Assembly: GCA_003141895.1 (NCBI GenBank)
Contig: PLNT01000018.1
Coordinates: 257,884 to 321,883 of the forward strand
DNA: 64,000 bases
Reading direction: 5' to 3'
DNA from: Bacteroidales bacterium
GTDB taxonomy: Bacteria; Bacteroidota; Bacteroidia; Bacteroidales; VadinHA17
Both the position numbers and the translations under genes were made by a program. The notes beneath the pieces were generated by a model, which saw only the letters and a program-made list of their open reading frames with translations, was not told where the DNA came from and searched no databases. Shown here piece after piece: positions 5,917-47,303 of the stretch (positions are counted from its first letter, which is position 1; every line of letters starts with the position of its first letter).

Positions 5917-6753
5917 TTAATGCAATAAATCTTTAATAAACTTTTTTAAAAGTGCAACTTTATCCGTAATTATTGGATTATTAATGAGGATTTTGTTAAT
6001 ATTCAGGTTTTCAGATAATAATTTTGGGAAAACGTATTTTGAAGGGACTTTATCTAAAGTTACGTATGGTGGGTTTCCTAATAAGAAACTTTTCCCATCA
6101 TAACCAGATATAAGATAAGAAAGGTGACTATAAACAAATGCATTGTTCAATAAAGGCTCCTGAATTCCAAGTTTACCAAATAAATTTTCTTTTACTAAAA
6201 ATAAATTTGTGTCTGTCATATGAGCTAACTTATATCCTTTATGGTGTGCGAGTTTTAATAAAGACAGTGCTGAACTTCCGAAATACTCTCCACGTTTTTG
6301 AATAATCTCAACATCAGGAGGGATGGTTGGATTATATTCTACAAGAATTAGTCTTGGGGCATAATCAACTAAGCTCTCCAAAATATAATAATCGTCCCCA
6401 TCAATATCAATAGATAATAGATCCAAGTCAAAAGGAAATCCTACTTTTTTTAAAATAAAATCTAAGGATGTTTCTCCTTCTGGAGATACATAGGCAAGAA
6501 AGGGTTGTACGTTAATAGAACTCTTAGTATTACTTACTAAAAGATCAAATTTAACTTTATCACCTTCAATTAATAGAGCTTCCCATCCGTTGTTATGCCA
6601 CAGATTCCAAGAATTGCTTAAATGGATACCATCCCATGCTCCAAATTCAACACACTTTTTGTTTGTAGTCCCAATTCTTGCGAGAATTTCTTCAATAACA
6701 CCATCTTCGCCGAATTGGGACTGAACATTTTTTTCAAATTTCTTCAAGCACAT
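5917..6753 (-). CDS. Putative methyltransferase (FkbM-like or class I)
   Basis: QSQFGEDGVIEEIL...CVEFGAWDG...LLSIDIDGDDYYILE resembles FkbM-type methyltransferase cores. This is less certain than the neighbouring gene. Confidence 0.5.
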   Translation of the reverse strand: MCLKKFEKNVQSQFGEDGVIEEILARIGTTNKKCVEFGAWDGIHLSNSWNLWHNNGWEALLIEGDKVKFDLLVSNTKSSINVQPFLAYVSPEGETSLDFILKKVGFPFDLDLLSIDIDGDDYYILESLVDYAPRLILVEYNPTIPPDVEIIQKRGEYFGSSALSLLKLAHHKGYKLAHMTDTNLFLVKENLFGKLGIQEPLLNNAFVYSHLSYLISGYDGKSFLLGNPPYVTLDKVPSKYVFPKLLSENLNINKILINNPIITDKVALLKKFIKDLLH

Positions 6754-9069: not shown

Positions 9070-10239
9070 TTATGCTGAATATTTTGAATATATCATTTTA
9101 ATCCCGTCATCAAGGCCGATTTTTTCCTTCCATCCCAGTCGATTGATCTTAGAGACATCAAGCAATTTACGATAAGTACCGTCAGGTTTTGAGTTGTCCC
9201 AATTTAACTGACCTTTAAAACCAACAACTTCTTTGATCAATAAAGCTAAATCCTTTATTGTAAGATCTTTTCCTGTACCAATATTGATATGAGTGTTTTT
9301 AATATCTGTACCGGACTTATGGCTGATGACTGTTTGCTCAGGGCTCAGGGCACAGGGCTCAGGGCGAAGAGCCTTAAGATCATTAAAGTCAACTTCATTC
9401 ATTACAAATACACAAGCTTCAGCAAGATCATCGACATATAAAAATTCACGATAAGGATTGCCAGAACCCCATAAACTTATTGTTACTTGGTGCTTGGTGC
9501 TGGGTGCTGGGTGCTGGGTGATGGGTGATGGGTTTGTGGAAATTCCGTACTTCAGCAGTTTATCCATTATTTCAGAATCTGTAAAAGTATCATTCACGCA
9601 CTCAACGGGATATTTTTTGAAATCCTGACGGATAGAGTTCCAATCATTATTCTCAAGACATTTCCCAAGATGCATTTTTCTGATCAGTGCTGGCATGACA
9701 TGTGATGTTTCGAGATTGTAATTGTCATTTGGGCCATAAAGATTTGTCGGCATCACAGACACAAAATTTGTCCCATATTGTATGTTGTAAGATTCACACA
9801 TTTTTATGCCGGCAATTTTTGCAACTGCATATGGTTCATTTGTATATTCTAATTCTCCTGTTAACAGATATTCTTCTTTTACAGGTTGTGGACAATTCCC
9901 CGGATAAATGCATGAACTGCCAAGAAATAACAACTTTTTTACTCCGTGCTTATAACTTTGATGTATAATGTTATTCTGAATCATCAGGTTCTCATAAATA
10001 AACTGAGCGCGGTAAGTATTGTTTGATAAAATACCACCCACCTTAGCGGCAGCAAGAAAAACATATTCAGGTTTTTCTTTTTCAAAGAACTCTCCCACTA
10101 TAATCTGATTAGTAAGATCAAAAGGCGGATAGGGAGAATAAACCTGATTTGTATATCCTTTTTCGATCAGATTCCGGCTGATAGCGCTACCTACCATTCC
10201 TTTGTGGCCTGCTATATATATCTTACTGGATTTTTCCAT
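9070..10239 (-). CDS. fcl: GDP-L-fucose synthase (GDP-4-keto-6-deoxymannose 3,5-epimerase/4-reductase), copy 1
   Basis: IYIAGHKGMVGSAI...LAAAKVGGI..NNTY.A.FIYENL...NEPYAVAKIAGIK...KPDGT.RKLLDVSK aligns by eye with E. coli Fcl/WcaG. It contains two in-frame short-tandem-repeat tracts (see findings). Confidence 0.9.
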   Translation of the reverse strand: MEKSSKIYIAGHKGMVGSAISRNLIEKGYTNQVYSPYPPFDLTNQIIVGEFFEKEKPEYVFLAAAKVGGILSNNTYRAQFIYENLMIQNNIIHQSYKHGVKKLLFLGSSCIYPGNCPQPVKEEYLLTGELEYTNEPYAVAKIAGIKMCESYNIQYGTNFVSVMPTNLYGPNDNYNLETSHVMPALIRKMHLGKCLENNDWNSIRQDFKKYPVECVNDTFTDSEIMDKLLKYGISTNPSPITQHPAPSTKHQVTISLWGSGNPYREFLYVDDLAEACVFVMNEVDFNDLKALRPEPCALSPEQTVISHKSGTDIKNTHINIGTGKDLTIKDLALLIKEVVGFKGQLNWDNSKPDGTYRKLLDVSKINRLGWKEKIGLDDGIKMIYSKYSA

Positions 10240-10240
10240 A

Positions 10241-10388
10241 TTATGGTGTGATGGTGTTATGGTGTTATGGTGTTATGGCGTTATTGCGTTATTGCGTTAT
10301 TGCGTTATGGCGTTATTGCGTTTTCCGACCTAACAACATAACGTATTAACAACATAACGTTTTAGTGTTATGATGTTATGATGTTATA
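10241..10388. repeat. Octamer microsatellite block: 10 x TTATGGYG/TTATTGCG, followed by inverted AACATAACG units and (GTTATGAT)n
   Basis: Read directly from the sequence. 10241-10320 is ten consecutive 8-mers. 10331-10360 carries the complementary units. 10365-10388 carries further direct units. Confidence 0.95.
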
Positions 10389-10409
10389 AGACAATAAAAT
10401 CTATATTTT

Positions 10410-11126
10410 TCATTTAGGGTTTAAAATCATAGCATTATCAATTGGAGTCCGGTTTTTACCAATCGAATTGTCGGAGCCTAAAAAAAAATCATTAGCAATT
10501 ATCTTTATCGTCTTGCCTACAGCTTCGATATCAAATGGCATAATATGCCAATCAACTGTCGAAAGAAGGATAATCGGGAAACTCGTAATACGCTGTTCCA
10601 CATCTATTTCGTTTATTATCGCTTTATTCTTTGCTTCATTGAACACATTTAACCAGTTAAACATGTAGTGTTGAGAAATTGCATAAATATCAAAAACATC
10701 TTTTGGTTCATCACGCCCTACAATCGCTGTCAGCTTATTAGTCAGTATGTTGAGCGGTGTATCGATGAAGCCGAACCTATATAAGTTTGGAACTCCGCAT
10801 CTGTAAGCAATATCATTTACAAATTCAATCTTAAGCACCAGTTCTTCATCTTCAATATAATATCGCACAAAATCATCATAAACAATGCTTTGGGTTTTTA
10901 AAACCGAAAATTTGCTAACTAGTATTTTTTCAACATTTTTTACAGATGTATGGAAACTATCGCTATTGTTAGTAAAAAAATCCAAATCCTCACTAAACCT
11001 GTGGTTAAGATAAAATCTACCTAATGCAGTGCCTCCAGTCAGATAAAAAGGAGATAAGACTGGTTTCAGAGCAGTAAGTATTCTATCTTGAGTCAGGTAA
11101 AGCTTCCTGTAATCTTTTTCTAACAT
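10410..11126 (-). CDS. AbiEii/AbiGii-family nucleotidyltransferase toxin (DUF1814-like)
   Basis: LSPFYLTGGTALGRFYLNHRFSEDLDFF is the characteristic N-terminal NTase motif of AbiEii-type toxins. The track ORF starts at a TTG (11168). The first ATG is at 11126. Confidence 0.75.
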   Translation of the reverse strand: MLEKDYRKLYLTQDRILTALKPVLSPFYLTGGTALGRFYLNHRFSEDLDFFTNNSDSFHTSVKNVEKILVSKFSVLKTQSIVYDDFVRYYIEDEELVLKIEFVNDIAYRCGVPNLYRFGFIDTPLNILTNKLTAIVGRDEPKDVFDIYAISQHYMFNWLNVFNEAKNKAIINEIDVEQRITSFPIILLSTVDWHIMPFDIEAVGKTIKIIANDFFLGSDNSIGKNRTPIDNAMILNPK

Positions 11127-11388
11127 ACCCGTAATGTTTCCTAAGTGATTTTGGCCATAATGTCCCAATTACTTCTTCTGTTAGCAACTCTTTAATATTT
11201 TCAACAGGCATTAACTGGATAATTGTAAACCAAGGTAAGCCAGTTAGCATTTTGGCGAACAACTTTTCAAGGGTGTAATGACCAGCTTTATTAATTTTGC
11301 CCTTAAGCAGCTTATCCATATCACTAACCGATATATTATAATCCCACATAACTGACTGCAATGTTTTATAGTGTTGCTGTGTGTTCAT
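11083..11388 (-). CDS. Small protein upstream of and overlapping the AbiEii-like gene (probable cognate antitoxin or partner)
   Basis: 101-aa ORF whose 3' end overlaps the AbiEii-like gene by about 44 nt (11083-11126) in another frame. The arrangement matches a two-gene TA operon. I recognised no motif. Confidence 0.5.
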   Translation of the reverse strand: MNTQQHYKTLQSVMWDYNISVSDMDKLLKGKINKAGHYTLEKLFAKMLTGLPWFTIIQLMPVENIKELLTEEVIGTLWPKSLRKHYGYVRKRLQEALPDSR

Positions 11389-11410
11389 AAATTTAAATGT
11401 TACTTGATTA

Positions 11411-11456
11411 AACGTTACGACGTTATGACGTTATTATGTTATGGCGTTATGACGTT
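11411..11456. repeat. Octamer microsatellite (GACGTTAT-type units)
   Basis: aacgttac gacgttat gacgttat tatgttat ggcgttat gacgtttt. It overlaps the last codons and stop of the HEPN gene. Confidence 0.9.
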
Positions 11457-11845
11457 TTAAGCAGCAATGATTCAACTTGTTCCTTTATTTTTAAAGCTTC
11501 CTGATAATATATTTCTGCTTCAACAAGAGTTGGTTTGCCATTTGGCATTAATCCTAAGTCACCGGGATATCGTGAATCAATGTATAAGCGATCCAATTCT
11601 GATATTATCAACTCATTAACAGATAAGTAAACAACATCTTCAATTTTTATAAGCAGAGTTTGAAGATTATGAGTTTTGATTAGCGTTATGCCAAACTCTT
11701 CAATAATTGCCTTTATGGATTTTTCAATTACCTGCTGTGAATGAAAGGCTACAATATTCGTCAAATTCGGATTATTCAGAATATTTTCTATCGTAAGAAG
11801 GTCATCTACTGCTGAATTGAGCCAATCTCTAGTTAACTGCTTCAT
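11447..11845 (-). CDS. HEPN-domain protein (partner of the MNT nucleotidyltransferase)
   Basis: 132 aa and helical. HSQQVIEKSIKA ... DSRYP resembles the HEPN Rx4-6H region. It overlaps the upstream MNT gene by 17 nt. Confidence 0.75.
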   Translation of the reverse strand: MKQLTRDWLNSAVDDLLTIENILNNPNLTNIVAFHSQQVIEKSIKAIIEEFGITLIKTHNLQTLLIKIEDVVYLSVNELIISELDRLYIDSRYPGDLGLMPNGKPTLVEAEIYYQEALKIKEQVESLLLKTS

Positions 11846-12173
11846 ATAAGATTTTCCCTTTAATATTTACCTCATTAGTAAACATGCTTCCAGATTCCAA
11901 TAGCTTTTGATACATCAACTTTGTATAAACGAGCATATCTATAGGAATAAATCTTCTGAATTTTTTAATCAGAATATTGTACTTGTGGTGCAGCTCCATT
12001 CTTTCACGATTCGTATTTGGCAGAAAATTATCCCTTGTTACAACAATAATATCTAAATCGCTATCCTTTCCTGGCATACCATAGGCGTATGATCCAAAAA
12101 GAATAATTTTTTCAACTCCTTCTTCTTTCAATGTATCCGTTATGCCATTAATAATTTGGTCTATGTTAGTCAT
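11829..12173 (-). CDS. Minimal nucleotidyltransferase (MNT) of an MNT-HEPN toxin-antitoxin pair
   Basis: ILFGSYAYGMPGKDSDLDIIVV is the canonical GS...DxD pol-beta NTase motif. Confidence 0.8.
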   Translation of the reverse strand: MTNIDQIINGITDTLKEEGVEKIILFGSYAYGMPGKDSDLDIIVVTRDNFLPNTNRERMELHHKYNILIKKFRRFIPIDMLVYTKLMYQKLLESGSMFTNEVNIKGKILYEAVN

Positions 12174-12269
12174 AACCCTTTTTGTTTAAAGATACAAAAA
12201 AACAAAAAATAAATTTATCAAATTGAAGATTTTATGGTCATTCAGAACGCGTTATAAAATTTTACCAAC

Positions 12270-12326
12270 CTAATGACATAACTAATAACAACATTACGTT
12301 TTAATGTTATGACGTTATGACGTTTT
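12270..12326. repeat. Octamer repeat block (inverted CATAAC units, then ATGTTATGACGTTATGACG)
   Basis: Read directly from the sequence. Same unit family as 10241-10388. Confidence 0.85.
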
Positions 12327-12333
12327 GGCAACG

Positions 12334-12861
12334 CTACTTCTTCCATATCAACATCGCTCCCATCCCATCACCCAGATGAGCCTGTGTTTCGGAGGGAGAT
12401 AGAATCAGGTAGCGGATCTTACGATTTATCAGAGATTCAGTTTTATCTATTAACAAGTGCAGAAAATTCTTATTGATAGCGTTACCTATAAGTAGTATGT
12501 CAATTGTTTTCCCATTCTTTCCAACAGCAAAATCGCCTGTTATATAGGCCTCTTCCACATCGCCTATTTTAGAAACCACCTCGTCAATTATCTGGTCGAT
12601 CCCGATGGTCTTGCTTATAATGCTATGTATATCCTTATAAAGTGGATGCACTATATTAGCACGATACAATTTCTTATTGCCACTTATAATTGACTCAAGG
12701 AGACCTGCTTTTTCAAACCGGTTTAACTCAAGTCTGACTGCATTACTGCTCTCCCCGAATTCTTTCGCCAACTCTTTCAGATAGGCTGAACTGGTTGAAT
12801 TCAGGAAGAATTTCAGTATGAGTTTTAGACGTGTTTTTGATGTCACAAGTGTGTCAAGCAT
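12334..12861 (-). CDS. Winged-helix (ArsR-like) transcriptional regulator with a C-terminal NTase-like domain
   Basis: SSAYLKELAKEFGESSNAVRLELNRFEKAGLL is a wHTH. The C-terminal half (AYITGDFAVGKNGKTIDILLIG) resembles a degenerate nucleotidyltransferase fold. Confidence 0.6.
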   Translation of the reverse strand: MLDTLVTSKTRLKLILKFFLNSTSSAYLKELAKEFGESSNAVRLELNRFEKAGLLESIISGNKKLYRANIVHPLYKDIHSIISKTIGIDQIIDEVVSKIGDVEEAYITGDFAVGKNGKTIDILLIGNAINKNFLHLLIDKTESLINRKIRYLILSPSETQAHLGDGMGAMLIWKK

Positions 12862-12878
12862 TCGTGGGATGAGGGTTA

Positions 12879-12910
12879 GCTGTTATGGCGTTATGGCGTT
12901 ATGATGTTTC
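12879..12910. repeat. Octamer repeat block (GGCGTTAT units)
   Basis: gctgttat ggcgttat ggcgttat gatgtttc, immediately upstream of the wHTH gene start. Confidence 0.85.
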
Positions 12911-13126
12911 AGGTTCTACTTGGAAGAAAGTTTTTTATTCAGGAGAAAACTGAAACAAATAAATATATAATTGCAATTCTAAATATTTGAAATTCAATTA
13001 TATTCGATGATTTTTATATCACACTTTTTTATGGCTTCGCCTCCGTCAGTCCCATTTTGGGATGCTTTAAAATGGCAATTTCGCATTCTTAAAAGTCGAT
13101 TCCTGGTAATTAATTACTACAAATAT

Positions 13127-13153
13127 AAAAAAATCGGGTAGAATAACTACCCG
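13127..13153 (-). terminator. Rho-independent terminator downstream of fcl copy 2
   Basis: On the minus strand: CGGGTAG-ttatt-CTACCCG, then A and a run of 7 T. Confidence 0.7.
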
Positions 13154-13229
13154 TTATCAGCATATATTTTCTAAAAATCATTATTCAATTGCTTTTTAGA
13201 GATATTGTGGAAGAAGGTTTAGCGTTCTT

Positions 13230-13277
13230 CCGTTATGGTGTTATGGTGTTATGACCTTATGACGTTATGGTGTTTCA
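13230..13277. repeat. Octamer repeat block (GTGTTATG/ACGTTATG units) overlapping the fcl copy 2 stop codon
   Basis: ccgttatg gtgttatg gtgttatg accttatg acgttatg gtgtttca. Confidence 0.9.
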
Positions 13278-14426
13278 GTCTTTCGAATAATTTCTATAAA
13301 CTATTTCAATACCCTTATTCAAATCAATCTTTTCTTTCCAGCCCAGTTTATTAATTTTTGATACATCGAGCAATTTGCGATAAGTGCCATCAGGTTTTGA
13401 GTTATCCCACTTTAACTCACCTTTAAAACCAACAGTGTCTTTGATCAATAAAGCTAAATTCTTAATTGTCAGATCTTTTCCTGTCCCAATATTGATGTGA
13501 GTGTTTTTAATATCTGTACCGGACTTATGGCTGATGACTGTTTGCTCAGGGCTCAGGGCACAGGGCTCAGGGCGAAGAGCCTTAAGATCATTAAAGTCAA
13601 CTTCATTCATAACAAAAACACAAGCTTCAGCAAGATCATCGACGTATAAAAACTCACGATAAGGATTGCCTGAACCCCATAAGCTGATTGTTACTATTTG
13701 CTGGGTGCTGGGTGCTGGGTTTGTGGAAATTCCGTACTTCAGCAGTTTATCCATTATTTCAGAATCTGTAAAAGTATCATTCACGCCCTCAACGGGGTAT
13801 TTTTTGAAATCCTGGCGGATAGATTCCCAATCATTATTCTCAAGACATTTCCCAAGATGCATTTTTCTGATCAGTGCCGGAAGAACATGAGATGTTTCAA
13901 GATTATAATTATCATTAGGGCCATAAAGATTGGTCGGCATTACAGAGACATAATTTGTTCCATATTGAATGTTGTAGGATTCGCACATTTTAATGCCGGC
14001 AATTTTTGCAATTGCATAAGGTTCATTTGTATATTCTAATTCTCCTGTTAAAAGATATTCTTCTTTTACAGGTTGTGGACAATTCCCCGGATAGATGCAT
14101 GAACTGCCAAGAAATAACAACTTTTTTACTCCGTGCTTATAACTTTGATGTATAATGTTATTCTGAATCATCAGGTTCTCATAAATAAACTGAGCACGGT
14201 AGGTATTGTTTGATAAAATACCCCCCACCTTAGCGGCAGCAAGAAAAACATATTCAGGTTTTTCTTTTTCAAAGAACTCTCCCACTATACTCTGATTAGT
14301 AAGATCAAAAGGCGGATAGGGAGAATAAACCTGATTTGTATATCCTTTTTCGATCAGATTCCGGCTGATAGCGCTACCTACCATTCCTTTGTGGCCTGAT
14401 ATATATATCTTCGAGGTTTTTTCCAT
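13275..14426 (-). CDS. fcl: GDP-L-fucose synthase, copy 2 (the copy sitting in the gmd-fcl operon position)
   Basis: 383 aa and nearly identical to copy 1 over most of its length. It differs by a 7-codon (3 heptamer) indel in the repeat tract, by scattered substitutions, and at the C-terminal end. Confidence 0.9.
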   Translation of the reverse strand: MEKTSKIYISGHKGMVGSAISRNLIEKGYTNQVYSPYPPFDLTNQSIVGEFFEKEKPEYVFLAAAKVGGILSNNTYRAQFIYENLMIQNNIIHQSYKHGVKKLLFLGSSCIYPGNCPQPVKEEYLLTGELEYTNEPYAIAKIAGIKMCESYNIQYGTNYVSVMPTNLYGPNDNYNLETSHVLPALIRKMHLGKCLENNDWESIRQDFKKYPVEGVNDTFTDSEIMDKLLKYGISTNPAPSTQQIVTISLWGSGNPYREFLYVDDLAEACVFVMNEVDFNDLKALRPEPCALSPEQTVISHKSGTDIKNTHINIGTGKDLTIKNLALLIKDTVGFKGELKWDNSKPDGTYRKLLDVSKINKLGWKEKIDLNKGIEIVYRNYSKD

Positions 14427-14460
14427 TTAATCGATTGTTAGTTGTATATCAGGCTTTTAA

Positions 14461-14536
14461 AAAACCCACCCCTTGCTCCTCCCAGGAGGGGAACCTTGCT
14501 CTTCAACCCCTGTGCCCTGTGCTCTGAGCACTGAGC
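14461..14536. repeat. Composite spacer: G/C-rich palindromic element plus heptamer block
   Basis: AACCCACCCCTTGCTCCTCCCAGGAGGGGA (CCTCC..GGAGG palindrome) followed by cctgtgc cctgtgc tctgagc actgagc. Confidence 0.9.
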
Positions 14537-33690: not shown

Positions 33691-33764
33691 GGACCTGTAG
33701 CTTAATTGGATAGAGCATCTGGCTACGGACCAGAAGGTTGGGGGTTCGAGTCCCTTCAGGTTCA
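33691..33764 (+). tRNA. tRNA-Arg (anticodon ACG)
   Basis: Folded by hand. Acceptor GGACCTG/CAGGTTC, D arm GCTT...GAGC, anticodon stem TCTGG/CCAGA with loop CTACGGA (ACG), T arm with the TTCGAGT loop, discriminator A. Confidence 0.9.
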
Positions 33765-33775
33765 CTTTTATAAAA
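33745..33775 (+). repeat. attL (tRNA-Arg 3' end)
   Basis: ttcgagtcccttcaggttcacttttataaaa, matching 47273-47303 (ttcgagtcccttcaggttcactcttataaaa). Confidence 0.9.
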
Positions 33776-33831: not shown

Positions 33832-33843
33832 ATTTCTACAACC
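33832..33843 (+). promoter_or_regulatory. ATTTCTACAACC motif (candidate integrase arm-type site, left end)
   Basis: The identical 12-mer recurs at 47129-47140, followed by ATTCTACAAC at 47141-47150, just inside the other end of the element. Confidence 0.35.
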
Positions 33844-33890: not shown

Positions 33891-34283
33891 CTATAGTAAA
33901 AAATTGACTTCGGAAAGCTCCTTTCCTATTTGATGAACACCTTGCAATATCCGTTTTGTCTGAATAATTGAAGGTTTTTTATTCCCTTTAATATATTGAG
34001 CTAATAAACTTTGGTTCATTCCTATTCGTTCAGAAAGCGCCTTTGCATTAATAACCTTGTAAAAGTCAAAGAAACTTTCAAGATCATAACTAAATTTTAT
34101 TTCATCAATCCTATAAATAAACCCTTTTACCTCAAAAGCAAGGTTTACAGCTTCTAAGATGTTAGATTTAAGTTCATCAAAGGTATTTCCATCGGTTGCT
34201 ATGAAATTATTTTCTACCGTTGTATTTGCGCTATATCCTATATCTTCTTTAACTACAGTTATGTTGATTTTAGTCTTTTTCAT
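33891..34283 (-). CDS. hicB: HicB-family antitoxin with a C-terminal XRE-type HTH
   Basis: The N-terminal HicB-like fold is (KINITVVKEDIGYSANTTVENNFIATDGNTFDELKSNILEAVNLAFE). The C-terminal HTH is (LSERIGMNQSLLAQYIKGNKKPS). It overlaps hicA by 4 nt. Confidence 0.75.
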   Translation of the reverse strand: MKKTKINITVVKEDIGYSANTTVENNFIATDGNTFDELKSNILEAVNLAFEVKGFIYRIDEIKFSYDLESFFDFYKVINAKALSERIGMNQSLLAQYIKGNKKPSIIQTKRILQGVHQIGKELSEVNFLL

Positions 34284-34477
34284 CTTTTACTCGTTTTAAT
34301 TTCTGCTTGCTTCAATATTGCTTTTAACAAACCTTTTTTAACTTCTTTCCCTGAATGGAACGGAACAGTAAGTTGTTTAGGATTCGTTGGATGCTGCATA
34401 ATTACATGACTGCCTTTTTGTCTGACTTCAATCCATCCATCCTTCTTTAACAACTTGAAAAGGTCATTATATTTCAT
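34280..34477 (-). CDS. hicA: HicA-family mRNA interferase toxin
   Basis: MKYNDLFKLLKKDGWIEVRQKGSHVIMQHPTNPKQLTVPFHSGKEVKKGLLKAILKQAEI is a near-consensus HicA (GSH motif). The start is taken at the ATG at 34477. Confidence 0.85.
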   Translation of the reverse strand: MKYNDLFKLLKKDGWIEVRQKGSHVIMQHPTNPKQLTVPFHSGKEVKKGLLKAILKQAEIKTSKR

Positions 34478-34569
34478 ATACACAAAGGTAATAAATATAT
34501 TACTTTCATGCAAATATTTTTTACTTTTAATTTGAATGTGCAAAAGTGAAATAGGTTTTTTTTGGTTGT

Positions 34570-34922
34570 CAGCTGCAGGATCCGCTCCGGGTCAACACTG
34601 TTTTACCCTGATGGTCGGTCCGGAATCAGTCAGAACCACGACCGGTAGTGATTAAAATTCAGGTAATATTAACCAGGTGTTTATGATCTGCAGCTGCAGG
34701 ATCCGCTCCTGGTCAACCCTTTTTGCCCTGACTAACCGGCCAGAAGTAGTCAGATCCATGGGTCCGTACGGGTTAATTCCGGAGTGATTTTAAGGTTTAC
34801 AGCTGGAGTATCCGCTCCGATCCGCTCCTGGTCAACCCTCTTTACCCTGATGAACCGGCCAGAAGTAGTCAGATCCATGGTCCGTCTGGGATAATTCCGG
34901 AGTGATTTTAAGGTTTACAGCT
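34570..34922. repeat. Three tandem GC-rich repeat units (121, 109 and 123 bp); candidate structured RNA or protein-binding array
   Basis: Units start at 34570, 34691 and 34800, each with CAGCTG(C/G)AGGATCCGCTCC...GGTCAAC...CCCTGA...GTCAGA.... Units 2 and 3 are very similar. Unit 1 diverges in its 3' half. No ORF is present. GC content is visibly much higher than in the flanks. Confidence 0.9.
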
Positions 34923-34932
34923 ACTGACGGAA

Positions 34933-35862
34933 TTAATTCGGTAATTGAAACATAAGAGAAGTTTCAAGGCCGATACTTTCTATTAATAAATTACCTAATG
35001 AGATAATATCCATTCCAATCAAAAGGTCAGCCCTTTCATCTTTATCCTGTATCCCCACCAGGACAGGGATTGCACGCTCATCCCAAAGATGAATATTAAT
35101 CAAACATGTATTAATTTTATGAATTGAATCCACATTCCCCATCAATAATGAACCTACTATTTTAACATTTAATTTTGATGCAAGCGATCGGGAAATCATA
35201 CTCATCCCGGCCCCGCTGTCCCAAGCGGCTAGAACCTTTAATGTTTTAGTGTTTGGTTGTGGAGTAGAAACTTTGCACTGATAACGAAGACTATAAACAA
35301 TTTTACCATATTCTAACCGGATTGAGTTTTCATTCTGATCTCTGTATATTTTATCTGGTTCCTCTATTTTAAACATTGCTGCCTTTTCGTTATCAATAAT
35401 TCGTTCCTTCTCCGGCATGTCAAACCGCACAATAGTCTTAGAATTTACGTTATTAACAAATAAATTCCCTCTGCAAATAATATCCATCCCAATTATAACA
35501 GGAGAGTCCGAGAGCTCCTTTTCCATCAGCTCAACTGGTACAGTGATACCGTTTGGTAAATAAATAAAAGCCTCGTAGCAATTTTTATCATACATTTTTC
35601 CGCTATCGTAATGCTTTATCGTTCGGTGACTTTTCAACCCCATTTTATTAACTAAATCTTTTGATATTAAACATCCACCACAGCCTGTATCCCACAGGGT
35701 TTCTATAGTTAACATTTTTTTCTTACCGTCTTTATCCTCTCTTTCCATTGGAAAAATAATACAATTGAGAACAATTTCTTTTACAACTTCATTATACGAA
35801 GCAGTAAAAGACTGTACTGAATTAAATACACTTCGTGTCAAAGAATACTTTTTGTTTTGCAT
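34933..35862 (-). CDS. Single-chain protein with two retropepsin-like (clan AA) aspartic protease domains
   Basis: Domain 1: LWDTGCGGCLIS ... VIIGMDIICRGNLFV. Domain 2: AWDSGAGMSMIS ... LLIGMDIISLGNLLI. This gives two D(T/S)G catalytic motifs, each with the downstream IGMDI helix motif. Confidence 0.7.
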   Translation of the reverse strand: MQNKKYSLTRSVFNSVQSFTASYNEVVKEIVLNCIIFPMEREDKDGKKKMLTIETLWDTGCGGCLISKDLVNKMGLKSHRTIKHYDSGKMYDKNCYEAFIYLPNGITVPVELMEKELSDSPVIIGMDIICRGNLFVNNVNSKTIVRFDMPEKERIIDNEKAAMFKIEEPDKIYRDQNENSIRLEYGKIVYSLRYQCKVSTPQPNTKTLKVLAAWDSGAGMSMISRSLASKLNVKIVGSLLMGNVDSIHKINTCLINIHLWDERAIPVLVGIQDKDERADLLIGMDIISLGNLLIESIGLETSLMFQLPN

Positions 35863-35966
35863 GATGAATTTATTTTAAAGTTTAATATACCTCTTTCAAA
35901 ATTTGTTCCCCGGAAAAAAGTCAATTTCAATTTAGCTTTTACCTTAAAGTAGGTAATTCCTTAATA

Positions 35967-36141
35967 CCCCCCCTTGAAATCTTCCTTTCAAAAAATACCC
36001 TCCAGAAAAAAACCGATTTTGAATTCAAGCAACCCTTAATCCCTGGATCCTGACTAACCCCCCCCCTCCAGTTTTGACAGAGGCACCGATTCTGAAGGCT
36101 AACGGTCGCAGAGACAAAAGCCCTAGAGAATTCCCCCCCCC
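35967..36141. repeat. GC-rich leader with three long homopolymeric C (minus-strand G) tracts upstream of the retropepsin gene
   Basis: C7 at 35967-35973, C9 at 36058-36066 and C9 at 36133-36141, plus local hairpins (for example CCCC-gta-GGGG on the minus strand). Confidence 0.9.
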
Positions 36142-36357
36142 TACGGGGTACCGGCGGCAGACTATTGTAATCATCAGATAATAAATATATTCCAAAATAA
36201 ATTCCGTATAAATTATCAGTTCACTAATAAATGAACAATATTGATTATCAATCATATATAAAGACTGTTTTATAGATGAGAAGTATTATAACGTTTCTTC
36301 GCATCTATATTATACCCATGCTGATATTTTAATGAATTTTGTATGTTTCTTTTGAAA

Positions 36358-37269
36358 TTAGAACGCTTTATCAATGTTGTGAACTGCAATGCCTTTCTTC
36401 TTTGTCTCTTCCTTAATGTACTTCAAATAGATCATAGTGGTTTTTATGTCCCGATGAGCCATCAATGCACTTACATTGTAGATATCAGTACCTTCATTAA
36501 TTGCTGTTACAGCACAGGTATGCCTAAGACTGTGAGCAGTAATCAGAGGGTCATCTATCCCTATATCTCTGAGTCTCTCTTTAACTATTCTTGACACTGT
36601 CTTAGGATCCATTCTATTTCCATCAGCTGCATAACCATGATTAATAAAGGCAGGTTCTTTATCCGGGTGTTCTCTTTGGCTGAAGTATTCTTGTATAGGA
36701 TTGATCACTTTTAATGTCATACCCTGAGTATCATCTTTACCCTCTCTTCCTTTCCTCTGGATCCGGACCAGCCATTGATCTTCTTCGATTACAAAGTCAC
36801 CAATGTCAAGCCGGCAAACTTCACAACATCGGAGTCCCATCCTTACCATAAGATTAATCATTGCATAGTCACGTTTCCCAATCATCGAGTTTCTGTTAAT
36901 CGAGCATAGGAGATCAGTAACCTGGGAGGGTCTTAACGGTTTTTTCTTAAATATCTGATCCTTTACTGAAGCTTTGAGCTTTTTTGCAACGTTTGGATAA
37001 AGCCCAACATCATCCAGGTAAGAAAAAAACTGCCTTATACAAACGGCATATGAGACAACAGTTGCCTCAGATCTTCCAGTCTTTTTTAGCCAGCTGATAT
37101 AACAGATTATGTTTGCAAATGTGACTGAATGATGATCTATTTCATTAGTTGTCAGCCATTTTATAAATATTGCAAGGTTAACTCTGTACTTTTTTATAGT
37201 GCCAGGCTTCCCCTGATGATCAGCCAGAAACTCTTCAATGAGTTGATTTATATGTTTGCCAGCTATCAC
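36358..37269 (-). CDS. XerC/XerD-like tyrosine recombinase (second recombinase of the element)
   Basis: The catalytic pattern is MGLRCCEV (R), HSLRHTCA (HxxR) and HRDIKTTMIYLKY (H...Y). The N-terminal SAM-like core-binding domain is present. Confidence 0.85.
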   Translation of the reverse strand: MIAGKHINQLIEEFLADHQGKPGTIKKYRVNLAIFIKWLTTNEIDHHSVTFANIICYISWLKKTGRSEATVVSYAVCIRQFFSYLDDVGLYPNVAKKLKASVKDQIFKKKPLRPSQVTDLLCSINRNSMIGKRDYAMINLMVRMGLRCCEVCRLDIGDFVIEEDQWLVRIQRKGREGKDDTQGMTLKVINPIQEYFSQREHPDKEPAFINHGYAADGNRMDPKTVSRIVKERLRDIGIDDPLITAHSLRHTCAVTAINEGTDIYNVSALMAHRDIKTTMIYLKYIKEETKKKGIAVHNIDKAF

Positions 37270-40392: not shown

Positions 40393-41088
40393 CTATTTTC
40401 TAATGTTTTGCGGGCTTCTATCTCTTATCCCTGCATCTTTACCGTCCAAAAGCGTTAACACGTTATAAACCTCCATATTTTCAATCTGTGATAGACTGAA
40501 ATCCATTCCCAGTTCAGAAAATGCATATAATAAACCAGATTGAGCCTGAGAACGCATTGACCCCATCCCTCGTTTACCACTAGAAGCATTTGAAGGGATA
40601 TTAACTACAGACCATTCAAGTAATTCCTGACCGGCAAAGCGATAAGTCTCATTTCCCCCCCCCTGGGCTTCGTCTCCTTTTCCCCAGGAGCCCGCCCCTA
40701 TTTCAAGAAAGCCAACTGATACAGCTCTCAGAGATCCCAGCATTAATTTGCGAAAGATTTTGTCTGCCAAAGGATTTATATCTGCAGTCTCAAAATAAGC
40801 ATCAGCACTTAATACTGTTCGTCCGGAAATTGTTTCTATCCCGATCCGCTTAGTCGATCCTATCACATCATCAGGATTTGAAGAAGTGAATGAGTTCCCA
40901 TAAAGATTATGCATATAACCAATCACAGGATTTTTACGGTAATTATCGAGGATCCAGTTAGCCTGATTGAGTACAGTATGATGTCTATCCCGGTCAGGAG
41001 TACTGACTATAAATGGAATTATGCGAGATTGCTTTGCATCTGTCGGAATATCTCGAACCTGTCCATATGTTATAACTTTATTCTTCAT
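40393..41088 (-). CDS. HK97-family prohead serine protease (S78/U35)
   Basis: RIIPFIVSTPDRDRHHTVLNQANWILDNYRKNPVIGYMHN...DVIGST follows the conserved N-terminal pattern of caudoviral prohead proteases (xSTxxxDRxxxxI...W.L..Y.KNPV....H). Confidence 0.7.
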   Translation of the reverse strand: MKNKVITYGQVRDIPTDAKQSRIIPFIVSTPDRDRHHTVLNQANWILDNYRKNPVIGYMHNLYGNSFTSSNPDDVIGSTKRIGIETISGRTVLSADAYFETADINPLADKIFRKLMLGSLRAVSVGFLEIGAGSWGKGDEAQGGGNETYRFAGQELLEWSVVNIPSNASSGKRGMGSMRSQAQSGLLYAFSELGMDFSLSQIENMEVYNVLTLLDGKDAGIRDRSPQNIRK

Positions 41089-47128: not shown

Positions 47129-47150
47129 ATTTCTACAACCATTCTACAAC
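47129..47150 (+). promoter_or_regulatory. ATTTCTACAACC + ATTCTACAAC direct repeats (candidate integrase arm-type sites, right end)
   Basis: The same 12-mer occurs at 33832-33843. Confidence 0.35.
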
Positions 47151-47272: not shown

Positions 47273-47303
47273 TTCGAGTCCCTTCAGGTTCACTCTTATA
47301 AAA
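47273..47303 (+). repeat. attR (duplicated tRNA-Arg 3' fragment)
   Basis: ttcgagtcccttcaggttcactcttataaaa. No tRNA 5' half lies upstream, so this is a partial copy. Confidence 0.9.

Follow-up and report, generated by a model that had tools for sequence, protein, structure and literature searches.

Probable cos-proximal backbone and variable cargo hotspot of a phage satellite integrated at a tRNA-Arg gene in a Bacteroidales genome

Does a striking row of five co-directional components at one end of an integrated element form a single system, or do the parts belong to different layers of the element? This question is raised by a 64,000-nt stretch of DNA from a Bacteroidales bacterium of the VadinHA17 lineage (assembly GCA_003141895.1, contig PLNT01000018.1, positions 257,884 to 321,883; the whole stretch is hereafter called the window). 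Close to a tRNA-Arg gene, its minus strand carries a gene for a XerC-like recombinase, a non-coding leader with G tracts, a gene for a protein with two retropepsin domains, three tandem repeats and a hicA-hicB pair. The preliminary description of this row regarded it as one novel module and offered three readings: a defence module controlled by a repeat-derived RNA, a protein-binding array, and a recombinase-controlled, phase-variable unit. The present analysis found that its observations were largely right and that the interpretation as one novel system was not. The region is probably the cos-side end of a cos-type phage satellite, 13.5 kb long and inserted in tRNA-Arg, in which a backbone segment is followed by a variable cargo hotspot. 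The coordinates of the features are listed in Table 1, and related contigs are referred to by L numbers.

The element in the window is 13,528 bp long and is delimited by 21-bp repeats of the tRNA-Arg 3' end (TTCGAGTCCCTTCAGGTTCAC; starting at 33745 and 47273), and all genes called within it lie on the minus strand. The earlier placement of the row at the tRNA-proximal end of an integrated, satellite-like element was upheld by this att repeat and by an integrase of the element's own, a 446-aa tyrosine integrase that is likely the enzyme for the tRNA-Arg site. Since its gene adjoins the distal att repeat, the 303-aa recombinase of the row is a second, internal recombinase. The element further contains excisionase-like, DnaD-like and DnaC-like replication genes and a head-protease-like gene; no terminase gene was detected among any of its open reading frames (ORFs). 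HK97-fold capsid genes are present in its relatives. The window is AT-rich and has the look of Bacteroidota DNA, and a near-identical copy of it was found in contig PMEL01000079.1 of the metagenome-assembled genome (MAG) GCA_003154725.1. The relatives L014 and L022 were assembled as circles with terminal overlaps of 127 bp and 123 bp. In L014, the circular order of protease gene, att core (a tRNA 3' fragment), a gene for a 131-aa protein and the large integrase gene indicates an excised form of the ca. 13.5-kb element, and this circle has neither the repeats nor hicAB.

The order of small recombinase, non-coding leader and protease was kept in eight related contigs (L001, L002, L003, L006, L014, L015, L018 and L021), as were the upstream genes for a DUF6965 protein and a helicase-loader-like protein. 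Six of them (L014, L015, L002, L003, L018 and L021) carry the protease gene but neither the repeats nor hicAB. A search for co-occurrence, which the preliminary description had suggested, thus found the first three parts syntenic in relatives, but the repeats and hicAB often missing. In other contigs the genes that follow are different ones: a gene for an HslV-like peptidase and three other genes after the recombinase and cos in L016, genes for a 98-aa protein and a SEC-C protein after the recombinase in L027, and small ORFs in L025 and L034. Since the recombinase and leader are kept while the following genes differ, the former belong to the backbone and the latter to a variable region that reaches up to the att arm. 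The notion of one five-part module does not survive this comparison, in which the recombinase and leader are backbone and are also met without the protease, repeats and hicAB. The description of the row as accessory cargo applies to these last three, which lie in the variable region, but not to the recombinase and leader, which are found in true phages as well. A hotspot for defence and accessory genes directly beside cos has been reported in P4 and P2 (PMC9122126), and the region from cos to the att arm is probably an accessory hotspot of the same kind. Its order is the protease first, then the repeats, which are bounded by CTGCAG, and finally a canonical hicAB pair.

The evidence for a cos site lies in the leader, a gap of 495 nt (35863-36357). 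The three G tracts ascribed to it (9, 9 and 7 nt) were found, and ca. 0.7 tracts of this kind would be expected by chance across the entire window; the GC-rich hairpins also ascribed to it were not supported (whole-leader fold, z -0.93). Alignment of leaders revealed a core of ca. 95 nt, which on the minus strand has the layout G7-9 / AAATCTCT / N17 / GCGACCGT / N22 / TGTCAAAAYT / G7-9. In the aligned versions, the block after the first G tract reads (T)nAAATCTCT, the 17 nt before GCGACCGT are variable, the 22 nt after it end in TGCC, and 3-5 nt separate TGTCAAAAYT from the second G tract; TGTCAAAA sits 22-30 nt to the terS side of GCGACCGT. Twenty distinct versions of the core were found, the spacing of the blocks is essentially constant, and a profile search gave exactly one copy per element. 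RNAalifold on 11 versions detected no conserved RNA fold on either strand (-1.8 and -0.1 kcal/mol, 0 compensatory pairs). Conserved blocks at fixed distances without covariation point to DNA that is bound by protein. A stricter pattern of the leader, used first, found no close relatives.

Pattern scans that were independent of genes located the core in one MAG contig of Bacteroidetes (L020) as well as in phage contigs from IMG/VR; the parents of the latter measure 35-44.5 kb, as compared with 12.2-13.5 kb for the satellites. The core lies directly upstream of a Pfam-confirmed terS in L020, L023, L036, L037, L039 and L041 (P27-family matches: Pfam Terminase_4, 1e-16 to 3e-27; phrog_83, 2e-30) and of a terS-type ORF in L038 and L042, and terL is located downstream in L024, L041 and L042. 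No recombinase gene precedes the core in L036, L038, L041 and L042. An HNH gene upstream of cos was confirmed by Pfam in L041 alone and not in L036 and L042, and the order HNH, cos, terS and terL of L041 is the layout of HK97-like phages. The immediate upstream neighbour of cos is a tyrosine recombinase gene in the Bacteroidota lineage and an HNH gene in HK97-like phages.

The ends of two sequenced phages bear on this site. The right end of HK97 (NC_002167.1) reads CAGGGGGGGGG-A-TCAAATCT-TC-(18 nt)-GACCGC-CGCCAAA, after which the record ends (7 nt past GACCGC), and the left end continues with GTTTGAATTTAACGCTAACCCGATTTTTTTAG before terS. The arrangement G9 / TCAAATCT / N18 / GACCGC of HK97 thus compares with G7-9 / TCAAATCT / N17 / GACCGT in the family, and the right half of the core (TGTCAAAAYT and the second G tract) is missing from HK97. 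The joined ends of Marinobacter phage AS1 read GGGGGCGGGG-TCCAAACTTTC-...-CACCGTC/ACCGTCC-...-TGGCAAAATTGAGGTA-GGGGGGG, where the slash marks the junction; they match the family profile (E 4e-5 and 1e-4), the ends fall at the ACCGT block, and AS1 has an HNH gene at its right end and terS at 70-531. The deposited ends of the HK97 and AS1 records are 0-7 nt from a block matching GACCGT, those of AS1 possibly not being experimental. For HK97, published work puts the TerS site at 15-29 bp downstream from the cut; the site depends on a G that adjoins an A-tract, and the overhang measures 10 nt (PMC10370121). The G and A-tract motif of the core described here, 20-30 bp to the terS side, is at a distance comparable to this site at +15 to +29. 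While cos of HK97 was defined experimentally, cleavage in the Bacteroidota family is predicted from sequence. That an E. coli phage and Bacteroidota phages have the G tract and TCAAATCT in common hints at a packaging function for them, perhaps in termination. The G9 tract and TCAAATCT block lie ca. 45-60 nt inside the right end of HK97, and no discussion of these features of the HK97 and AS1 ends was found in the HK97 terminase paper (PMC10370121).

The similarity of the cos cores did not follow that of the recombinases. The recombinases of the window and L001 are 28% identical and their cos cores 80%; the cos site of satellite L029 is 87% identical to that of phage L023, while the recombinases of these two are 47% identical, and the L029 recombinase is 79% identical to that of the window. 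This decoupling fits a packaging site matched to the helper rather than a recombinase-binding site. The leader as the recombinase's own site was rejected for this reason and since the core occurs in phages without a recombinase. The core thus probably represents an HK97-type cos site common to satellite and helper phages. The terminase of a helper phage (P27-family TerS and TerL, probably with an HNH protein) would recognise it and nick near GCGACCGT, the side with TGTCAAAAYT and the G tract would be the TerS-binding side, and the site would let the satellite be packaged. Of the three earlier readings, the protein-binding array therefore proved right in that a site of the packaging type is present, but this site is the leader and not the repeats.

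Att repeats with an own integrase, and a cos site common to phages in an element lacking a terminase gene, are the marks of a cos-type satellite. P4 (helper P2) and PICIs (phage-inducible chromosomal islands) of the SaPIbov5 type (helpers phi12 and phiSLT) are likewise integrated elements of ca. 12-14 kb with their own integrase, att repeats and no terminase; like them, the present element has its cos in common with larger phages and is about one third the size of its candidate helpers. SaPIbov5-type islands, Staphylococcus aureus pathogenicity islands (SaPIs) of ca. 14 kb, have a cos common to helpers ca. 3 times larger, and their packaging needs HNH (PMC5052747). The size ratio of satellite to phage observed here, ca. 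1:3, is the same as that in cos-type SaPIs (PMC5052747). The accessory and defence hotspot adjoining cos is a further likeness to P4 (PMC9122126). The element differs from P4 and SaPIbov5 in its Bacteroidota host, in having capsid-related and prohead-protease-like genes, in the second, small tyrosine recombinase at cos and in the retropepsin-type protease as the usual first gene of the hotspot. P4 and SaPIbov5 have named helper phages, whereas the present element is likened to them from its sequence.

Several points weigh against the satellite and cos interpretation. HK97 matches the core in its left half only and was not reported by nhmmer unaided; the record ends of AS1 may not have been determined experimentally, and no paper on them was found. 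The small recombinase gene precedes the core in all 14 satellite and Bacteroidota-type phage versions in which the upstream side was checked, which leaves room for a second function of the core tied to the recombinase. The pattern of two G3 runs in both tracts, described below, goes unexplained by knowledge of cos sites. Given how frequent the protease is in its slot, it may count as semi-core and not as cargo. Furthermore, the ends, induction and helper phage of the element are predictions from sequence, and no cultured relative was found to carry the full element: blastn of the core against cultured phages found nothing.

The G tracts of the core comprise at least 7 G, or are interrupted with two G3 runs kept (GGGTATATGGG, GGGAGGGG, GGGCGGG and GGGGAGGGGG), a pattern that looks like a constraint of the G-quadruplex type. 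The leader could accordingly be read as a regulatory G-quadruplex of two G3-N-G3 tracts and a 67-nt loop, besides or instead of cos, which would control late or cargo genes or mark a start of recombination or replication. In most versions neither tract is shorter than 7 G, the coding strand is the G-rich one in every case, the first tract also occurs in HK97 and AS1, and the survival of two G3 runs upon interruption is predicted by a quadruplex constraint and not by homopolymer slippage. However, a central loop of 67 nt is very long for a stable intramolecular form, the second pair of runs is absent from L039 and reduced to GGGG or GGGGG in L036, L038 and L042, and what is conserved between the tracts is the sequence of blocks with constant spacing, pointing to protein binding. 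We regard a quadruplex role as unlikely, although it would be compatible with the cos site.

Phase variation, in which slippage of a G tract or inversion by the recombinase toggles the protease gene, would account for long G tracts that lie beside a recombinase gene and upstream of another gene. The tract lengths of 9, 9 and 7 were the same in six independent assemblies, and together with the interrupted G3-N-G3 tracts of relatives this argues against slippage; no inverted repeats flank the promoter-like region, and the orientation of the core to its flanking genes is the same at all loci. The phase-variable unit proposed earlier is accordingly extremely unlikely. The promoter-like region consists of two directly repeated motif copies. 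In L001, L006 and L003 the AAAtTTTGAAAG motif also precedes the protease gene, and in L016 it precedes a different cargo gene; the copies are candidate promoters for whichever gene comes next. The sole other tract of at least 7 G in the window, a fourth G9 tract (40655-40663, minus strand), is located in the head-protease-like gene (40393-41088), where it encodes Gly-Gly-Gly.

The 303-aa recombinase was described correctly, including its catalytic set: alignment to XerA and XerD structures showed all the Arg, His-x-x-Arg, His and Tyr positions. It does not reach the curated Xer cut-offs of NCBIfam (XerA, 132.5 vs 220 bits; XerD, 125 vs 329.6; XerC, 107 vs 335), and a search of viral contigs with it gave no close relatives. 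It is a backbone gene product and not the integrase of the tRNA site, and its role, at which we can only guess, may be in multimer resolution or in the formation of a circular replicon. At least two subtypes of the cos-adjacent recombinase, ca. 28-33% identical and with different C-termini, occupy the same position (L001, L006, L021 and L022 vs the window). Just downstream of the recombinase stop, a 13-nt inverted repeat, TATAGATGAGAAG / CTTCGCATCTATA, is kept in L003, L016, L018 and L027, which have the window-type recombinase lineage; it is a candidate terminator or recombinase site.

The tandem repeats were partly as described. The three units and their high GC content were found (0.50 in the array vs 0.36 for the window), but they start 12 nt past the protease stop rather than 10 nt, and the term structured fits only unit 3, which folds better than shuffled sequences; units 1 and 2 and the L016 unit do not. 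For folding, unit 3 was represented by the CCAGG variant present in L008, L010 and L012; a single base sets this variant apart from the window copy. The same element has four copies in L010 and L012 and at least four, with an N gap, in L008, and since the number varies between assemblies of one element, three may be an assembly value. The units start with CTG(C/T)A and end in the conserved motif TTGACCAGGAGnGGATCC(T)GCAG, and their junctions are near-palindromic (GGATCCTGCAG / CTGCAGATC, the slash marking the boundary). Relatives of the repeats follow the protease gene in L001, L006 and L029, separate other cargo genes in L016, and in L027 stand in the stretch from cos to the first cargo gene; L016, L027 and L006 have them without hicAB, the L001 repeats are degenerate and accompanied by an inverted hicA, and L006 retains a single remnant. 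They occur with both recombinase subtypes and are missing from several sister elements, and none turned up elsewhere in the window or in the collections of reference genomes and viral sequences. Rfam searches at gathering and permissive thresholds reported tRNA only. The 11-mer said to be shared between leader and repeats exists, two bases off the positions first given (34727-34737 and 36049-36059), but 55 of 2000 shuffles also reached such a match, and related elements do not keep it.

On this evidence, the repeats appear to be element-family-specific, palindrome-ended, non-essential intergenic repeats. An essential origin resembling crr of P4 was rejected, as the repeats are missing from sister elements with the same replication genes, and so were arm sites of the integrase, since the candidate arm motif is a different one, TTCTACAAC. 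Like integron attC sites, ERIC and MITE sequences, the repeats are imperfect palindromes of ca. 110-120 nt with inverted ends that lie after stop codons in a variable region. By contrast with these, they are not dispersed in the host genome, come with no IntI-type integrase and no R'/R'' consensus, stand in tandem without intervening genes and have only one unit type that folds stably. A different palindromic repeat family, with AACCAACAGCGAC twice and its inverse GTCGCTGTTGGTT, was observed in L021 ca. 100-330 nt downstream of the protease stop.

The likeness to attC leads to an integron-like cargo platform, in which the leader would serve the recombinase as attI-like site and the imperfect palindromes bounded by CTGCAG as attC-like sites, for capturing and shuffling cargo genes such as those of the protease and hicAB. 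Such a platform would explain why the cargo downstream of the recombinase and leader differs among related elements, why repeat relatives lie directly after cargo stops or between cargo genes (L016, L001, L006 and L027), why unit ends are inverted (CTGCAGATC ... GATCCTGCAG) with unit 3 forming a long imperfect hairpin, why L001 and L014 diverge immediately after a common CAGCT, and why copy number shifts by whole units. The recombinase, however, scores 62.8 bits against the integron-integrase model TIGR02249 (cut-off 265), matching with its C-terminus only, and 303 aa leave no room for the IntI-specific insertion. The leader core stands at terS, including in phages without any recombinase, and does not co-vary with recombinase type, and recombinases of two subtypes, only 28% identical, accompany one and the same repeat motif. 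Units 1 and 2 fold like shuffles, as does the L016 unit, no consistent R'/R'' boxes (GTTRRRY / RYYYAAC) were found, the cargo genes have promoter-like motifs of their own, and hicA of L001 interrupts a unit instead of being bounded by units. We therefore consider the platform very improbable and give an attC-like role of the repeats the same low standing. A broader version, in which the recombinase at cos (the HNH position in HK97-like phages) and the CTGCAG-bounded repeats form a site-specific system of cargo exchange for the hotspot, is a long shot as well. If true, it would be an integron-like device on phage satellites and would explain why a second recombinase is kept in each of these tiny elements.

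The hicA-hicB pair was identified correctly, as a HicA domain with an adjacent, overlapping HicB-family partner that was assigned from the names of its homologues and a weak HTH_3 match. The N-terminal domain of this partner has no Pfam match, and a weak XRE-type HTH covers residues 81-106. In its family, which is spread across Bacteroidota, there are over 3191 homologous clusters at 77-99% identity, and JGI and NCBI label these as HicB family or XRE regulator. Nothing apart from the Pfam-unrecognised N-terminus of the antitoxin sets the pair apart from other HicAB type II toxin-antitoxin systems. It is a standard, independently mobile cargo pair, with promoter-like sequence of its own.

The remaining reading of the preliminary description was that of a module for defence or abortive infection whose protease and HicA would be under the control of a repeat-derived RNA, as in type III ToxI-like systems. 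The repeats do lie just upstream of hicA, the cos-adjacent hotspot is a known location of defence genes in satellites (PMC9122126), and PADLOC reported one match, weak and local, between the active-site region of the protease and the candidate PDC-M08B (E 3.9e-5). The repeats and hicA are nevertheless separable in both directions, with repeat relatives lacking hicAB in the three contigs named above, hicAB without repeats in thousands of contexts and over 3000 clusters of the identical HicB family in unrelated contexts. HicA is paired with HicB as its cognate protein antitoxin, which is not the arrangement of a ToxIN-like type III system, promoter-like sequence separates the repeats from hicA, there is no Rfam match to the repeats, two of the three units fold no better than chance, and the protease without repeats or hicAB is common among relatives. 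This reading was accordingly judged to have almost no chance of being correct.

The 309-aa protein has two retropepsin-like halves, as described earlier, both of which were matched by Pfam. The matches are to the retropepsin families PF13650, PF13975 and PF08284 only, and no Pfam match to the pepsin family A1 was obtained. The halves are 27% identical to one another and each contributes one catalytic Asp, with D-T-G at 58-60 and D-[ST]-G-A at 215-218 invariant in eight relatives. These eight family members (23-59% identity) keep W-D-T-G at 57-60, G125-x-D127, D215-[ST]-G-A and G283-M-D285. Of five AlphaFold2 (AF2) models one was confident (pLDDT 81, pTM 0.81), and Foldseek aligned this model over its full length with renin, plasmepsin, cathepsin D and a Bacteroides fragilis putative endopeptidase (probability 1.0, TM ca. 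0.5). The predicted structure thus has the pepsin-like bilobal form of two lobes with one D-[TS]-G catalytic Asp each. Very few full-length relatives exist: a search of genome contigs gave no close relatives, and in 1.84 billion representatives, searched exhaustively with a profile, there were ca. 12 two-domain proteins vs ca. 1800 single-domain relatives at 1e-10. A single-domain, 138-aa retropepsin occupies the same position in the sister satellites L029-L033, and given this unfused form at the same locus, the fusion looks like an independent, recent duplication. The protein is, according to its modelled fold, a natural duplication and fusion of retropepsin into a minimal pepsin-like enzyme. 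It is much smaller than typical A1 enzymes, and its halves are closest to bacterial single-domain retropepsins, which are often linked to SEC-C.

The protease may act on virion proteins of the helper or satellite, or in defence or interference. This suggestion comes from its place as the first gene after cos, from its being the commonest occupant of that slot and from the presence of another peptidase there in L016. The latter (6098-6652) is an HslV-family peptidase (phrog_1040, 5e-20) directly after cos, so that two unrelated types of protease occur in the same slot. In L034 (1-1245), a 445-aa protein encoded beside capsid genes has an N-terminal retropepsin-like domain that is 41% identical to the single-domain protease of L029 over 49 aa; retropepsin domains may thus also occur in the head module of some related elements.

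Table 1 Features of the element and its cos-proximal region, with positions in the window
Feature	Position	Strand	Basis or remark
tRNA-Arg(ACG)	33691..33765	+	ARAGORN; Rfam 64.9 bits
attL core, final 21 nt of tRNA-Arg	33745-33765		21-mer TTCGAGTCCCTTCAGGTTCAC; second copy 47273-47293
HicB-like antitoxin, 130 aa	33891..34283	-	Overlaps hicA stop; weak HTH_3, E 0.011
HicA toxin, 66 aa	34280..34480	-	Pfam HicA_toxin 1.2e-25
Repeat unit 3, 121 nt	34573..34693	-	Bounded by CTGCAG...CTGCAG; fold z -2.98; type amplified in other assemblies
Repeat unit 2, 109 nt	34694..34802	-	TRF period 119, 92% match; nhmmer; fold z -0.11
Repeat unit 1, 116-118 nt	34805..34920	-	12 nt past protease stop; fold z +1.05
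Single-chain bilobal aspartic protease, 309 aa, two retropepsin-like halves	34933..35862	-	Pfam; catalytic D58, D215
Two promoter-like motif copies (TTGAC/TCGG - N - AAAtTTTGAAAG)	35893-35927, 35985-36019	-	Direct repeat D7; G7 tract (35967-35973) between
Core of probable HK97-type cos site	36055..36148	-	Conserved blocks, fixed spacing, single copy, terS-adjacent in phage contigs
Core block, second G9	36058-36066	-	
Core block TGTCAAAA	36072-36079	-	Putative TerS-binding side
Core block GCGACCGT	36102-36109	-	Putative nicking region
Core block ATTCTCT	36125-36131	-	
Core block G9	36133-36141	-	
13-nt inverted repeat TATAGATGAGAAG / CTTCGCATCTATA	36271..36309	.	I22; 13-nt spacer; just downstream of recombinase stop
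XerC/D/A-like tyrosine recombinase, 303 aa	36358..37269	-	Pfam Phage_integrase 1.5e-27; PHROG; PDB XerA 8.8e-18
Tyrosine integrase, 446 aa	45733..47073	-	PHROG integrase 2e-21; beside distal att repeat 47273-47293

Some further observations were made on the element, its relatives and the surrounding DNA. The motif TTCTACAAC is present on the plus strand in one copy near the tRNA-side att core (33834-33842) and in two copies, 11 bp apart, near the integrase-side core (47131-47139 and 47142-47150); at these copies the 446-aa integrase may have its arm-type binding sites. Contig L015 (13,300 bp) is a complete circle that lacks 5 nt and is opened ca. 50 nt upstream of the cos core, a break that could be a coverage artefact or could be related to physical ends. 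Between terS and terL, L020, L023 and L024 have several paralogous genes for proteins of 138-156 aa with repeated, antisense-readable segments, together with an RVT_1 reverse transcriptase gene (1e-19), an insert that looks like a diversity-generating retroelement. In the window, many short tandem arrays with units of 7-8 nt (TTATGGCG, ACGTTATG, GTTATGGC/T, GCTCAGG and GGTGCTG) extend over ca. 5 kb of host sequence upstream of the element (9336-14526).

Resolving the striking five-part combination into backbone and cargo hotspot removes a false lead and points to a family of cos-type satellites of 12-13.5 kb in uncultured Bacteroidota, with an HK97-type packaging signal common to phages of 35-45 kb. 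The left half of the HK97 cos site, including a G tract that behaves as two G3 runs, is kept from an E. coli phage to Bacteroidota phages, and the conserved motif could be used to find cos sites and pairs of satellite and helper in metagenomes. The protease is a small and rare natural case of a known idea, the fusion of retropepsin halves to a pepsin-like enzyme. The slot adjacent to cos may serve as a handle for mining the cargo of these satellites, as it does for P4 and P2.

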